Shown: one piece after another, positions 8,998 to 14,343 of the stretch
Position numbering within the stretch: the stretch's first letter is position 1
How the letters are laid out: every line of letters begins with the position of its first letter
Virus record (IMG/VR): IMGVR_UViG_2617270943_000001
Span: 1 to 26,221 of that record
Length of the DNA: 26,221 nt
Strand: one strand, 5' to 3'
DNA from: a virus
Taxonomy: Duplodnaviria; Heunggongvirae; Uroviricota; Caudoviricetes
Notes under the pieces: model-generated
Seen by the model: the letters and a program-made list of their open reading frames with translations, nothing else
Database searches by the model: none
What the model was told of the DNA's origin: nothing
Program-made: the position numbers and the translations under genes

Positions 8998-9330
8998 ATG
9001 AACCCTTATATTTATCTTGGTGGTGCAATACTTGCAGAGGTCATTGGTACAACCTTAATGAAGTTTTCAGAAGGTTTTACACGGTTATGGCCATCTGTTG
9101 GTACAATTATTTGTTATTGTGCATCATTCTGGTTATTAGCTCAGACGCTGGCTTATATTCCTACAGGGATTGCTTATGCTATCTGGTCAGGAGTCGGTAT
9201 TGTCCTGATTAGCTTACTGTCATGGGGACTTTTCGGCCAACGGCTGGACCTGCCAGCCATTATAGGCATGATGTTGATTTGTGCCGGTGTGTTGGTTATT
9301 AATTTATTGTCACGAAGCACACCACATTAA
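8998..9330 (+). CDS. emrE: SMR-family multidrug efflux transporter EmrE, 110 aa
   Basis: Translation MNPYIYLGGAILAEVIGTTLMKFSEGFTRLWPSVG... matches E. coli EmrE (the DLP12-borne gene) with four predicted TM helices; ATG at 8998 preceded by AGGAAAG. Confidence 0.9.
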   Translation: MNPYIYLGGAILAEVIGTTLMKFSEGFTRLWPSVGTIICYCASFWLLAQTLAYIPTGIAYAIWSGVGIVLISLLSWGLFGQRLDLPAIIGMMLICAGVLVINLLSRSTPH

Positions 9331-9361
9331 AAATAATTTGTTTCTAAACGACTAAAATATG

Positions 9362-9394
9362 GAGGCTCTTATATTTATATGAGCCTCGTTTTAT
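9362..9394 (+). terminator. Rho-independent terminator after emrE
   Basis: GAGGCTC-loop-GAGCCTC hairpin followed by GTTTTATGCTTTTTG. Confidence 0.5.
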
Positions 9395-9584
9395 GCTTTT
9401 TGTTAATGTCTTTATTTTTTATGTATTCTTTTGTGCTTTCAAGATTATGGCGTAAGAAAATTGCAATACGATTATTGTTGTATATTCAAGATAATGTGAC
9501 CTTAATTGTCTTTTTAAATAAAAATTAAACAAAATTATATCCCACCACTAAGGTTTATAAAAGCATACGTTAGCAGGTGTCACC

Positions 9585-11111
9585 ATGAAAAAAGCCATAG
9601 CATATATGCGATTTTCATCACCAGGTCAGATGTCTGGCGACTCATTAAACCGACAGAGAAGACTTATTGCTGAATGGTTAAAGGTAAATAGTGATTATTA
9701 TCTTGATACCATAACATATGAAGATTTAGGATTAAGTGCATTCAAAGGAAAGCATGCACAATCAGGAGCTTTTTCGGAATTTTTAGATGCTATAGAGCAT
9801 GGTTATATATTGCCAGGAACTACATTGTTAGTTGAAAGTCTGGACAGACTTTCAAGAGAAAAAGTCGGTGAAGCGATTGAACGTCTGAAATTGATTTTGA
9901 ATCACGGTATTGATGTTATAACTCTTTGCGACAATACAGTCTATAATATTGACTCTTTGAATGAGCCATATTCATTAATAAAAGCCATACTTATAGCACA
10001 AAGGGCAAATGAAGAAAGCGAGATAAAGTCAAGTCGGGTTAAATTATCATGGAAGAAAAAACGGCAGGATGCACTGGAATCAGGTACGATTATGACGGCG
10101 TCTTGTCCGAGATGGCTCTCCTTAGATGACAAAAGAACGGCTTTTGTTCCAGACCCCGACAGGGTGAAAACTATTGAGCTAATTTTTAAACTCAGGATGG
10201 AAAGGCGCTCATTGAATGCAATAGCCAAGTATTTAAATGATCATGCTGTAAAGAATTTCTCAGGAAAAGAAAGTGCATGGGGACCTTCTGTAATTGAAAA
10301 ATTATTAGCGAATAAAGCTCTGATAGGTATATGCGTACCTTCATATCGTGCAAGAGGTAAAGGAATAAGTGAAATCGCTGGCTATTATCCCAGAGTCATA
10401 TCAGATGATTTGTTTTACGCTGTACAGGAAATTCGGTTGGCACCTTTTGGTATTAGCAATAGTAGCAAAAATCCTATGTTGATAAATCTACTTCGAACAG
10501 TTATGAAGTGCGAGGCTTGTGGTAATACCATGATTGTTCATGCGGTATCTAGAAGTTTGCATGGCTATTATGTTTGTCCGATGAGAAGACTGCATCGATG
10601 TGACAGGCCATCAATAAAGAGAGATTTGGTTGATTATAATATCATTAATGAGTTGCTTTTTAATTGTAGTAAAATCCAACCAGTTGAAAACAAGAAAGAT
10701 GCTAATGAAACTTTAGAGTTGAAAATTATTGAGCTCCAGATGAAAATTAATAATTTAATTGCTGCATTATCTGTTGCGCCTGAAGTTACCGCTATAGCAG
10801 AAAAAATCAGAGTATTAGATAAGGAATTACGAAGGGCTTCTGTATCATTAAAAACTTTGAAGAGTAAAGCGGTGAGTTCACTTGGTGATTTTCATGCTAT
10901 TGACTTAACCAGTAAAAATGGGCGAGAGCTATGTCGTACACTTGCCTATAAAACATTCGAAAAAATCATAATCAATACAGATAATAAAACCTGTGATATC
11001 TATTTTATGAATGGCATTGTTTTTAAACACTATCCTTTAATGAAAACAATATCCGCCCAGCAGGCGATAAGTACTCTCAAATATATGGTTGATGGTGAGG
11101 TTTATTTTTGA
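9585..11111 (+). CDS. ybcK: Large serine recombinase (resolvase/invertase-type N-terminal domain with recombinase and zinc-ribbon extension), 508 aa
   Basis: N-terminal AIAYMRFSSPGQ with catalytic-Ser context and LLVESLDRLSR motif; C-terminal CxxC...C cluster; AT-rich codon usage; resembles DLP12 YbcK. Confidence 0.8.
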   Translation: MKKAIAYMRFSSPGQMSGDSLNRQRRLIAEWLKVNSDYYLDTITYEDLGLSAFKGKHAQSGAFSEFLDAIEHGYILPGTTLLVESLDRLSREKVGEAIERLKLILNHGIDVITLCDNTVYNIDSLNEPYSLIKAILIAQRANEESEIKSSRVKLSWKKKRQDALESGTIMTASCPRWLSLDDKRTAFVPDPDRVKTIELIFKLRMERRSLNAIAKYLNDHAVKNFSGKESAWGPSVIEKLLANKALIGICVPSYRARGKGISEIAGYYPRVISDDLFYAVQEIRLAPFGISNSSKNPMLINLLRTVMKCEACGNTMIVHAVSRSLHGYYVCPMRRLHRCDRPSIKRDLVDYNIINELLFNCSKIQPVENKKDANETLELKIIELQMKINNLIAALSVAPEVTAIAEKIRVLDKELRRASVSLKTLKSKAVSSLGDFHAIDLTSKNGRELCRTLAYKTFEKIIINTDNKTCDIYFMNGIVFKHYPLMKTISAQQAISTLKYMVDGEVYF

Positions 11112-11255
11112 GTAATAATCACTTTTTCAACCGTGCTATAGTAAGAAAGTTAGGTAAGTACATTTAGACTGGCCCCCTGAATCTCCAGACAACCAATATC
11201 ACTTAAATAAGTGATAGTCTTAATACTAGTTTTTAGACTAGTCATTGGAGAACAG

Positions 11256-11621
11256 ATGATTGATGTCTTAGGGCCGGAGAAACGCAGACGGCGTACCACA
11301 CAGGAAAAGATCGCAATTGTTCAGCAGAGCTTTGAACCGGGGATGACGGTCTCCCTCGTTGCCCGGCAACATGGTGTAGCAGCCAGCCAGTTATTTCTCT
11401 GGCGTAAGCAATACCAGGAAGGAAGTCTTACTGCTGTCGCCGCCGGAGAACAGGTTGTTCCTGCCTCTGAACTTGCTGCCGCCATGAAGCAGATTAAAGA
11501 ACTCCAGCGCCTGCTCGGCAAGAAAACGATGGAAAATGAACTCCTCAAAGAAGCCGTTGAATATGGACGGGCAAAAAAGTGGATAGCGCACGCGCCCTTA
11601 TTGCCCGGGGATGGGGAGTAA
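11256..11621 (+). CDS. insC: IS2 transposase OrfA (InsC)
   Basis: Translation [47 protein letters not shown]... with HTH; ends just after the AAAAAAG slippery heptamer at 11573..11579. Confidence 0.9.
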
Positions 11622-12484
11622 GCTTAGTCAGCCGTTGTCTCCGGGTGTCGCGTGCGCAGTTGCACGTCATTCTCAGACGAACCGATGACTGGATGGATGG
11701 CCGCCGCAGTCGTCACACTGATGATACGGATGTGCTTCTCCGTATACACCATGTTATCGGAGAGCTGCCCACGTATGGTTATCGTCGGGTATGGGCGCTG
11801 CTTCGCAGACAGGCAGAACTTGATGGTATGCCTGCGATCAATGCCAAACGTGTTTACCGGATCATGCGCCAGAATGCGCTGTTGCTTGAGCGAAAACCTG
11901 CTGTACCGCCATCGAAACGGGCACATACAGGCAGAGTGGCCGTGAAAGAAAGCAATCAGCGATGGTGCTCTGACGGGTTCGAGTTCTGCTGTGATAACGG
12001 AGAGAGACTGCGTGTCACGTTCGCGCTGGACTGCTGTGATCGTGAGGCACTGCACTGGGCGGTCACTACCGGCGGCTTCAACAGTGAAACAGTACAGGAC
12101 GTCATGCTGGGAGCGGTGGAACGCCGCTTCGGCAACGATCTTCCGTCGTCTCCAGTGGAGTGGCTGACGGATAATGGTTCATGCTACCGGGCTAATGAAA
12201 CACGCCAGTTCGCCCGGATGTTGGGACTTGAACCGAAGAACACGGCGGTGCGGAGTCCGGAGAGTAACGGAATAGCAGAGAGCTTCGTGAAAACGATAAA
12301 GCGTGACTACATCAGTATCATGCCCAAACCAGACGGGTTAACGGCAGCAAAGAACCTTGCAGAGGCGTTCGAGCATTATAACGAATGGCATCCGCATAGT
12401 GCGCTGGGTTATCGCTCGCCACGGGAATATCTGCGGCAGCGGGCTTGTAATGGGTTAAGTGATAACAGATGTCTGGAAATATAG
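11579..12484 (+). CDS. insD: IS2 transposase OrfB (InsD; DDE catalytic domain, expressed by -1 frameshift fusion to OrfA)
   Basis: The ORF is in the -1 frame relative to insC and overlaps it by 43 nt; sequence matches IS2 InsD as recalled, with the DDE catalytic core expected for an IS3-family OrfB. Confidence 0.9.
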
Positions 12485-12558
12485 GGGCAAATCCAACATT
12501 AAAATTATCTATCCTGAACGAAGCGTCCTGAGCTATGGTTTTACTATAGAGACTGCCA

Positions 12559-12882
12559 ATGGATGCTGGCGTTCTCGTTCTAGCAGTTCAACAATACCCA
12601 ATCACAAAACAATTCACTGATAACGAACTTTGCACACTCGCCTGGTTATGGCGAGCAGGGAATGTGATGTTAATTACCTACCAGAACGTTACTCCTCTTC
12701 TTCAGGTTGCGGAGCATCGTGAAGCTGGTCGCTTCACTTCTATCGAGCAAGAATATCCCCAGATACTCAATAAGGCACAGGCAATCCTTGCCAGAGAAAC
12801 GGCACATGTAAAATTCCGGCCGTGGCAGGATGATAAGTGGAGTCGAGTTTTGCCGCATTTACGTTCGGATCGATTACAGTAG
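12559..12882 (+). CDS. Hypothetical protein, 107 aa (orphan ORF immediately right of IS2)
   Basis: ORF with ordinary codon usage; no recognisable motif; not a lambda nin-region gene. Confidence 0.4.
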   Translation: MDAGVLVLAVQQYPITKQFTDNELCTLAWLWRAGNVMLITYQNVTPLLQVAEHREAGRFTSIEQEYPQILNKAQAILARETAHVKFRPWQDDKWSRVLPHLRSDRLQ

Positions 12883-13343
12883 ATTCCAATTAACAATGAG
12901 AAACACATAGCCACCCCGTGGTATTGAAACCATATAATGTTGGATTTGAAAACAGATCTTTTTCCATGTATTAATAACTACATCCCCGCGAGTGATTCAA
13001 AAAGGAGGGCCCAATTTTGTCCGAGTTTTTGTATTCCCCCGCATGCCGCTGCGGAGCACTACATCTGAGTGTCTGACTAGGGGATAAAATTAGACTGGAT
13101 AGTGAGAAGAAAGTGGCGTGCTAGGCTGTGCCGAGTGCTACCAGTACACCCTGGGGGTGTGCAGCTTTCGCCGAGACTGTAGTGGGTATCGGTTAATGCA
13201 CGAAAAACCGAGAGGTCAGACAACCAATTTGCCGTAGGATTGTTTCCGGTGCGATACCGGTGTACTAACTGAAAGCAATGCGAAAAAGCATAAACTCGGT
13301 CCTTCAGTCGCCCTACACACTATTTACTAAGAAGGGCTAAAGC

Positions 13344-13700
13344 ATGGATACAATTATCACATGGATGGGAGATCGTCTGTTGGGGTGGATAACAAACAAA
13401 TCCGATCTGCGGCAGAGGGCAATCACTGGATTAACTCCTGCGATTTATTCAACAATTTTATATACTGAAAAATTAAAACGTGGTGAGCCTAATAACCCAA
13501 ACGAAGAAGAAAAACTTTATAGGCTTTGGTATGAAGCGTCTTCCCAAGTCGTAGACTTTGATCGAGAGCTGGCTAAAAGATGTTTAGATAAATCAGAATA
13601 TTGGCTTCATTCTGAATTATATAGCCCTGAGAAAGTTGGAGAGCTAAACATTTCTTTGGTTGGTATGAAGGCAACGCTTGAAGGAATAAAGCACAATTAA
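13344..13700 (+). CDS. Hypothetical protein, 118 aa (AT-rich orphan ORF)
   Basis: ORF with AAGGG Shine-Dalgarno-like sequence upstream, preceded by a GC-rich structured leader; low-GC codon usage suggests foreign origin. Confidence 0.45.
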   Translation: MDTIITWMGDRLLGWITNKSDLRQRAITGLTPAIYSTILYTEKLKRGEPNNPNEEEKLYRLWYEASSQVVDFDRELAKRCLDKSEYWLHSELYSPEKVGELNISLVGMKATLEGIKHN

Positions 13701-13887
13701 AACCTTTGATTTGCGATAATCAACTCGCCATAATCATGTCATCGGAGCCTGAACAACTCCGGTGACTTCTGCGCTAAACGGGGACGTTTATGCGCACACA
13801 CAATCCAAACTCTCTTCTCCCTCCAAAGATGCAGAAATGCACCTGCGATATATTGTATCCAGCGTTTGACCTCTGCGGAGGTGAAGC

Positions 13888-14343
13888 GTGAATCTCCCAC
13901 AAGATGGCATCAAATTACATCGCGGTAACTTCACCGCTATCGGTCGGCAGATCCAGCCTTATCTGGAGGAGGGCAAATGCTTTCGCATGGTGCTTAAACC
14001 GTGGCGTGAGAAACGCAGTCTTTCCCAGAATGCACTCAGCCACATGTGGTACAGCGAAATCAGTGAATACCTCATCAGCAGGGGTAAAACGTTCGCTACT
14101 CCAGCTTGGGTAAAAGATGCTCTCAAACACACATATCTCGGTTATGAAACCAAAGACCTGGTTGATGTTGTAACCGGTGATATCACCACTATCCAGTCGT
14201 TACGCCATACCTCCGATCTTGATACCGGAGAGATGTATGTCTTCCTGTGTAAGGTTGAAGCCTGGGCGGTGAATATTGGCTGCCACCTGACTATTCCGCA
14301 GAGCTGCGAGTTCCAGCTGCTCCGCGACAAGCAGGAGGCGTAA
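13888..14343 (+). CDS. ybcN: NinB-like protein (YbcN family), 151 aa
   Basis: Translation [27 protein letters not shown]...[13 protein letters not shown] matches DLP12 YbcN and the NinB family RSLxQN motif; GTG start. Confidence 0.8.

Follow-up and report, generated by a model that had tools for sequence, protein, structure and literature searches.

Few large RNAs with a conserved tertiary structure occur in bacteria and phages, and most of them have proved to be ribozymes, riboswitches, or unusual particles. Phage HK022 carries short put sites adjoining both early promoters, and AvcI is one of the non-repetitive exceptions among type III antitoxin RNAs. The small RNAs of Escherichia coli prophages are short, Hfq-type, seed-pairing molecules with Rfam models (10.64898/2026.05.13.724894). 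GOLLD and ROOL sit in prophages (Weinberg et al. 2017, PMC5737381), and a 2025 cryo-EM study describes them as forming RNA-only homo-oligomers (PMC12286853). Here we analyzed a 26,221-nucleotide stretch of viral DNA (IMG/VR record IMGVR_UViG_2617270943_000001, referred to here as the window), which its gene calls identify as a DLP12-like lambdoid prophage of E. coli. Our data suggest, with moderate confidence, that a 332-nt block in its nin region encodes an autonomous structured non-coding RNA, a 'moron' that is optional in the nin region of Enterobacterales lambdoid prophages.

Within the nin region, the block is flanked by a P22-antirepressor remnant on its 5' side and by orf118 on its 3' side (Table 1). 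The original prediction described a GC-rich, hairpin-dense non-coding block at 12950-13343 that held no ORF of 60 aa or more and read straight into orf118. We found the non-coding block at this position, with the longest ORFs across 12950..13343 being 48 aa (minus strand), 43 aa, and 39 aa, and in the window it does run directly into orf118. The conserved unit lies inside the predicted interval but is narrower, comprising only the core listed in Table 1. The description of a GC-rich block in an AT-rich island is mildly true but the contrast is small, since G+C content is 0.48 for 12950-13343 and 0.51 for the core, compared to 0.44 in the upstream flank, 0.415 in the downstream flank, and 0.475 in the window as a whole. 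Base composition contrasts strongly in two other places, where G+C content is 0.60-0.64 with high AT skew at approximately 23.0-24.4 kb and 0.31-0.40 over ybcK (9200-11100). RefSeq carries no annotation beneath the block, and two phage records place two spurious small ORFs across it. The truncated antirepressor ORF stands immediately 5' of the promoter-like motif of the RNA. Farther upstream, the IS2-like insertion is absent from otherwise identical DLP12-type loci, in which the gap between ybcK and the antirepressor remnant is 112 nt; the two forms of the locus differ by 1336 bp, which is consistent with IS2 together with a 5-bp target duplication.

Table 1. Genes, putative signals, and predicted RNA elements at the locus (positions in the window; empty cells, no entry)
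Feature	Position	Strand	Details
emrE, then ybcK (serine recombinase)	9585..11111 (ybcK)		Gene order of window
IS2-like (IS3-family) insertion	~11150-12485		Two overlapping transposase ORFs, 11211..11621 and 11579..12484
P22-type antirepressor remnant, 107 aa	12559..12882		C-terminal domain only, PF10548, E = 1e-15
Promoter-like motif	12946..12975	+	TTGAAA (12946-12951), 17-18 nt spacer, AT-rich TATTAA/ATTAAT (12969-12975)
Putative structured-RNA core, 332 nt	12982..13313	+	Starts ATCCCCGCGAG, ends CAGTCGCCC; conservation boundaries, alignments A1-A7
5' domain	12982..13085	+	Closed by P1 (12982-12987 with 13080-13085); RNAalifold, pair counts
P2, long hairpin in 5' domain	12988-13042	+	Contains Shine-Dalgarno-like AAGGAGG
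P3, hairpin in 5' domain	13047-13055 with 13064-13071	+	One- and two-sided changes
P3 loop CACUAC, kissing-loop 5' partner	13057..13062	+	Pairs with 13179-13184
PK2 pseudoknot, 5' strand UCUGAC	13072..13077	+	Long-range, pairs with 13215-13220
3' domain	13093..13309	+	Closed by P4 (13093-13098 with 13304-13309); pair counts
P5	13109-13114 with 13164-13169	+	3' domain
P5a	13115-13142	+	3' domain
P5b	13144-13150 with 13156-13162	+	3' domain
P6	13170-13178 with 13185-13193	+	3' domain
P6 loop GUAGUG, kissing-loop 3' partner	13179..13184	+	Pairs with 13057-13062
P7	13207-13212 with 13295-13300	+	3' domain
PK2 pseudoknot, 3' strand GUCAGA	13215..13220	+	Within motif GAGAGGUCAGACAACCAA
P8, variable hairpin	13246-13250 with 13256-13260	+	Other hairpin in its place in some lineages
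P9	13278-13281 with 13288-13291	+	3' domain
Linker from core to orf118, 30 nt	13314..13343	+	No terminator
orf118	13344..13700	+	Conserved four-helix bundle, phrog_12412
Downstream gene order			orf118, ylcH, ybcN/ninB (13888..), ninE, ybcO, rusA, quuD

Conservation across relatives had been named as a test of the candidate, and we found homologues of the block in several Enterobacterales genera. Conservation sets in sharply at 12982 (ATCCCCGCGAG) and stops at 13313 (CAGTCGCCC). Type-1 cores are 330-333 nt long with hardly any indels and share 72-100% identity; 166 of 334 columns are invariant among 33 aligned sequences, as are approximately half of the unpaired positions. A divergent subgroup, referred to here as type 2 (L275, L269, L268, and others), retains the core in its 5' domain and middle and is strongly diverged in the 3' quarter. 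Among complete E. coli genomes, 159 of 5426 carry the block, mostly at 96-100% identity, and one different prophage carries it at 83% identity. Phage carriers comprise two E. coli phages and two Klebsiella phages (78% identity), and motif scans and profile searches recovered 64 + 12 loci in IMG/VR and 26 metagenomic contigs. Furthermore, look-ups of neighboring proteins identified prophage carriers in Obesumbacterium proteus, Enterobacter bugandensis, and Kosakonia. There was no true match among the 185,579 species representatives of GTDB, and the block was not found in the plasmids of PLSDB. The Rfam scan that had been suggested for this block gave no family match: at the gathering threshold Rfam 15 matched nowhere in the window, and at E values up to 10 the sole match in 12400-13900 was a chance snoRNA hit outside the block. 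ARAGORN called no tRNA or tmRNA genes in the window.

Our data indicate that the block is not significantly hairpin-dense when judged from its own sequence (MFE z = -0.79 on the plus strand and -0.19 on the minus strand). The single-sequence fold is no better than that of shuffled sequences, and the structural support comes entirely from comparison with relatives. The fold model was built with RNAalifold and manual refinement and consists of two domains; pairings in which the partners were slid by 1-3 columns served as controls. Across 31-33 distinct sequences, the modelled pairs form in 93-98% of cells compared to 33-46% in the shifted controls. Among the 33 distinct type-1 sequences, 97.3% of cells are standard pairs (35-42% shifted), there are 28 two-sided pair changes (3-8 shifted), and the covariation score is 0.221 (0.04-0.06 shifted); with the divergent subtypes added, 93.5% of cells are paired (35-44% shifted) and two-sided changes rise to 34 (6-13 shifted), although these covariation counts overstate the number of independent events since the sequences are mosaics of a few lineages. 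The covariation analysis that had been called for thus found compensatory changes in many helices. The cells contain 282 G-U compared to 8 A-C combinations, an excess which establishes the plus strand as the folded one. Together, cross-genus conservation, near-fixed length, compensatory changes, two tertiary contacts, and strand-specific G-U pairs strongly support the original prediction of a structured RNA.

Comparative analysis shows the 5' and 3' domains of the predicted fold to be locked together by a kissing loop and a pseudoknot (PK2). The 6-bp kissing loop between P3 and P6 occurs in five covarying versions (CACUAC/GUAGUG, CGCAAC/GUUGCG, CACCAC/GUGGUG, CAUCAC/GUGAUG, and CGUAAC/GUUACG), with 99-100% of cells paired and two-sided change at three pairs. 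PK2, also 6 bp, is paired in 99.5% of cells and likewise has three pairs with two-sided change. It is invariant in the first 31 sequences (GUCUGAC/GUCAGAC) and takes compensatory forms in L260-type sequences (GUCUGAU/GAUCAGAU) and in type 2 (GUCCGGC/GCCGGAC). The motif that contains its 3' strand, GAGAGGUCAGACAACCAA, is identical in the first 31 unique cores and varies solely in the L260-type and type 2 sequences.

Of the individual hairpins first pointed out in the sequence, ACACC/GGTGT (13146-13150 with 13156-13160, part of P5b) and CCGGT/ACCGG (P8) are borne out by covariation. The third, CCGC..GCGG near 13047, is not, as it would require a loop of one base, which is impossible on steric grounds, and these bases instead make up the 5' strand of P3. 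In L273/L276, C-G pairs of P1 have changed to U-A and U-G, and P5, P5a, P5b, P6, and P7 contain 3-5 pairs with two-sided change apiece. The innermost pairs of P2 (P2a, 12988-12990 with 13040-13042) are broken in type 2, which makes the P2a part of the model uncertain, and 13222-13277 is only loosely modelled. Apparent breaks of P4 in alignment A7 result from a one-column alignment shift. P9 resembles boxB (AUGC-GAAAAA-GCAU), a candidate that we rejected because its loop varies (GAAAAC, GAAACA, GAAUAC), which argues against a strict protein site. A CsrA sponge was rejected as well, since inspection found approximately five GGA motifs, the number expected by chance. Lastly, a 12-nt complementarity between 13093-13104 and ninB (14187-14198) is lineage-specific and is thus regarded as a chance match.

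The block had also been suggested to be a degraded gene. A defective prophage with a truncated antirepressor gene and an IS2-like insertion close by is a setting in which the block could be a protein-coding gene in decay or, alternatively, an element acting at the DNA level, for instance an origin or a protein-binding array. However, 72-100% conservation across genera with hardly any indels argues against both, and the compensatory changes and strand-specific G-U pairs indicate an RNA. Variable columns are split 49/43/47 by codon position and thus lack codon periodicity, no ORF is common to all variants, some relatives contain in-frame stops, and the small ORFs of the block have no match in Pfam. 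At the level of sequence, the pseudogene reading is effectively refuted, and we give decay or a DNA-level element hardly any credence. A 19-codon ORF (13017-13076) was rejected as coding, given that its substitutions fall 5/4/4 by codon position and that an in-frame TGA is present in L006, L015, and L016. The RNA contains a near-perfect Shine-Dalgarno-like AAGGAGG at 13002-13008 with the UUG of this frame 8 nt on (13017), and the UGA stop (13074-13076) falls in a pseudoknot strand. Since the Shine-Dalgarno-like sequence, the spacing, and the UUG are conserved although the frame is without coding constraint, ribosome binding could compete with folding.

We found the TTGAAA-17-TATTAA that had been noted at 12946-12974, and all lineages retain this bipartite motif as TTGAAA-like and TTTAAT-like hexamers 17-18 nt apart. 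A gap of 6-7 nt separates the second hexamer from the core, and transcription is predicted to start near the core. Relatives keep TTGAAA, TTGAAT, TTGTAT, or TTGATA together with TTTAAT, TTAAAT, or TTATAT at equal spacing while the spacer varies freely, and such retention of the hexamers around a freely varying spacer is the signature of a promoter. A simple sigma-70 consensus scan did not call the motif, as one of two consensus bases is missing from its -10, the A at position 2 or the T at position 6. Just 5' of it lie a second TTGAAA (12924-12929) and a perfect TATAAT (12933-12938), which are too closely spaced to belong to a single promoter; the TATAAT is not kept in other lineages, which have CCATATGTTG instead. 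Another promoter-like sequence, TTGATT-17-CATAAT, falls within a conserved inverted repeat, TTGATT...AATCAA (13706-13734 in the window, 11899-11927 in L056), in the ylcH/ninB leader of every lineage, just 3' of the RNA module.

Most relatives contain a strong intrinsic terminator that starts 6-9 nt past the core and consists of CCGCC-loop-GGCGG or CCACC-GAAA-GGTGG followed by 6-9 T, with L010 and type 2 having the alternative stem CCACC/GGUGG. The lineage of the window and four others have no terminator, and orf118 follows after approximately 30 nt. We infer that the RNA would be transcribed rightward from its own sigma-70-like promoter and that in most relatives it would stop at the strong terminator a few bases past the core, yielding a transcript of approximately 355 nt. 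Since the terminator is missing in the DLP12-type lineage of the window, the RNA would there form the 5' part of the orf118 transcript.

Location in the early-right operon, directly 5' of a strong terminator and of ninB...Q, raises the question of whether the RNA acts like put, that is, in cis on its RNA polymerase, allowing it to pass one or more terminators and reach Q. The lack of a recognizable N gene between cI and gam in phage Turner (PP925837) would be in line with such processive antitermination. However, each phage carries a single copy that lies far from pR, the RNA has approximately five times the size of put, nin regions that are nearly identical may have or lack it, and the DLP12/Turner lineage contains the RNA but no terminator after it. 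We consider this model very unlikely.

The RNA is always located just upstream of ninB or its positional equivalent, in the same orientation, while the flanking genes vary. Upstream genes differ widely among loci, and the next gene is, depending on the lineage, orf118, a 178-aa 2-TM protein, a 176-183-aa protein, a 95-aa protein, DUF1367, or none. L275, L274, L270, and L272 have no partner gene, and the ninB leader comes right behind the terminator. Among 80 loci with 97-99% identical NinB only 19 contain the RNA, and a weak relative was found in none. Our data indicate that in the lineage of the window orf118 is probably co-transcribed with the RNA and is not an obligate partner. The RNA is found 5' of orf118 homologues at 69-79% identity but not of a 51% homologue. 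Similarly, the cassette of RNA, terminator, and 2-TM gene is kept down to 57% protein identity, and more distant 2-TM homologues are without the RNA; the profiles of orf118 and of the 2-TM protein are unrelated. Persistence of the RNA with orf118 (to 69%) and with the terminator and 2-TM gene (to 57%) could reflect functional coupling rather than mere linkage.

Several observations concern the neighboring genes themselves. The orf118 family is very small, with 21 clusters from Enterobacterales, and its product, a generic four-helix bundle, has no significant match in the PDB. In approximately 59 E. coli genomes, orf118 has an internal deletion of approximately 140 bp while the upstream RNA is intact at 96-98% identity. 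The 176-183-aa protein that follows the RNA and terminator in a Klebsiella phage (L003 4416-4967) and in some IMG/VR contigs (L278 and L267) belongs to phrog_27260, has no family match, and contains RLRHNLLH, which by inspection resembles the HEPN Rx4H nuclease motif. In Kosakonia sp. MUSA4 (L263 1-1319), genes for an AAA_21 ATPase and a RloB-domain protein lie directly 5' of the RNA module. This gene pair is typical of anti-phage systems, and its position next to the RNA suggests that the nin-region slot is a defence or accessory hotspot. None of the neighbors called at any locus contains a reverse-transcriptase domain (retron/DRT).

The order of promoter, structured RNA, terminator 6-9 nt past the closing helix, and gene is a classic attenuator layout, and a riboswitch-like leader had been one of the options in the original prediction. 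As a cis-acting leader or attenuator, the folded RNA would gate transcription or translation into orf118, the 2-TM protein, or the ninB-Q operon in response to a ligand, a protein, or a phage signal, and a toxic downstream gene may be gated, as is reportedly the case for the AbiD1 abortive-infection leader in Lactococcus. Indeed, the RNA is the 5' UTR of orf118 in the window and four other lineages, the element is always 5' of the nin operon in the same orientation, and the orf118 and 2-TM cassettes persist over deep divergence. On the other hand, inspection found no antiterminator pairing of the core that covaries with the terminator, and the CCACC/GGUGG stem of L010 and type 2 occurs without a matching change in the core. 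An antiterminator between ACUAC in the linker and the P6 loop was rejected, as inspection found no covariation between them. The leader is further weakened by terminators that follow the RNA in most relatives, by downstream genes that are mutually unrelated or absent, and by distant orf118 and 2-TM homologues that exist without the RNA. The layout and the persistent cassettes keep this model alive, and we regard it as a tentative possibility.

The layout of promoter, RNA, terminator, and toxin is also that of toxIN- and AvcID-type loci, and the RNA might accordingly be an antitoxin or regulator of an adjacent toxic effector in a type III-like toxin-antitoxin (TA) or abortive-infection module. 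Several neighbors are suggestive in this respect: UniRef gives the name SLATT 2-TM effector to a homologue that shares 41% identity with the 2-TM protein, the RHNLLH motif of the Klebsiella downstream protein resembles HEPN Rx4H, and one locus adjoins the AAA_21 and RloB genes. However, tandem repeats were not detected in the RNA, and no downstream protein has a match in SLATT, PADLOC, Pfam, or NCBIfam. We rejected the 2-TM protein as a SLATT protein, as this assignment derives only from the UniRef name of the 41% homologue while Pfam, NCBIfam, and PADLOC are negative, and a BFVD fold search with the 2-TM protein was uninformative. One RNA that precedes at least five unrelated downstream proteins, or none, is a poor fit to specific RNA-protein neutralization. 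The type III-like model is quite unlikely and, together with the put-like model, belongs to the less likely explanations.

We therefore return to the autonomous RNA. A promoter-like motif of its own, a terminator, and variable flanks are the marks of an independent gene ('moron'), here read from the sequence; counting against autonomy, the RNA of the window is physically the 5' leader of orf118, with no terminator. The RNA is large and fixed in length, has unpaired stretches that do not vary, and makes two long-range contacts, all of which argues for a compact three-dimensional fold that binds something, and not for a seed-pairing sRNA. The sRNA option of the original prediction is accordingly apt in that this appears to be a separate RNA gene, but at approximately 332 nt with a complex tertiary fold the RNA is atypical of base-pairing small RNAs. 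Most likely, the RNA would act in trans as a folded molecule that binds a protein or small ligand, as scaffold or decoy, rather than as a base-pairing sRNA or a gene-specific leader. Such an RNA might give the prophage or its lysogen an accessory advantage, for instance in conflicts of phages with their host or with other phages.

A bolder proposal, which we find doubtful, is that the RNA is the first of a new class of functional RNAs in E. coli phages, large and with tertiary structure, and works on its own as sensor, gate, or catalyst. In one version, the RNA may sense an infection or physiological cue and thereby govern whether toxic effectors or the nin-Q late-switch genes are reached by read-through; in another, it may build a higher-order particle through its loop-loop contact. 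Lambda-like phages of E. coli form the phage-host system that is understood best, and with phage Turner as an intact carrier, function is directly testable. Our data suggest that accessory 'moron' slots in the nin region can house RNA genes that are overlooked by protein-centred annotation.

Searching the literature by sequence strings and by topic returned no description of the RNA, and the IMG/VR catalogue of candidate structured RNAs (PMC10690425) could include it as an unnamed candidate. Compared to described systems, it shares with the prophage sRNAs DicF, IpeX, Pas, AgvB/AsxR, and STnc100 a non-coding gene with promoter and terminator in lambdoid prophages, but at approximately 332 nt with conserved tertiary structure it matches none of their Rfam models. 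HK022 put is likewise a structured RNA of a lambdoid phage, in the early operon upstream of terminators, whereas the present RNA differs in length (332 nt compared to approximately 70 nt), in copy number, in its location in the nin region and not next to pL/pR, and in its optional presence. Riboswitches and attenuators also combine a multi-helix core, invariant junction nucleotides, a kissing loop, a pseudoknot, and a terminator close behind, yet the genes downstream of the present RNA are functionally incoherent or absent, and it apparently has its own promoter and is a mobile unit. The type III TA RNAs (ToxI, AvcI, and abiF-motif RNA) have the same order of promoter, RNA, intrinsic terminator, and protein gene in one orientation on mobile elements, whereas the present RNA is without tandem repeats and precedes unrelated proteins or none, among which no toxin family was recognized. 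GOLLD and ROOL are similar in being large, intricate non-coding RNAs of temperate phages and prophages, with loop-loop contacts. In contrast to them, the present RNA is much smaller (332 nt), belongs to lambdoid phages of Enterobacterales at a fixed site 5' of ninB, has no sequence or structure match in Rfam 15, and has a kissing loop that may be intra- or intermolecular. We place the RNA in a new family among the orphan structured RNAs of mobile elements, a category already known, with a modest chance that it represents something mechanistically new.
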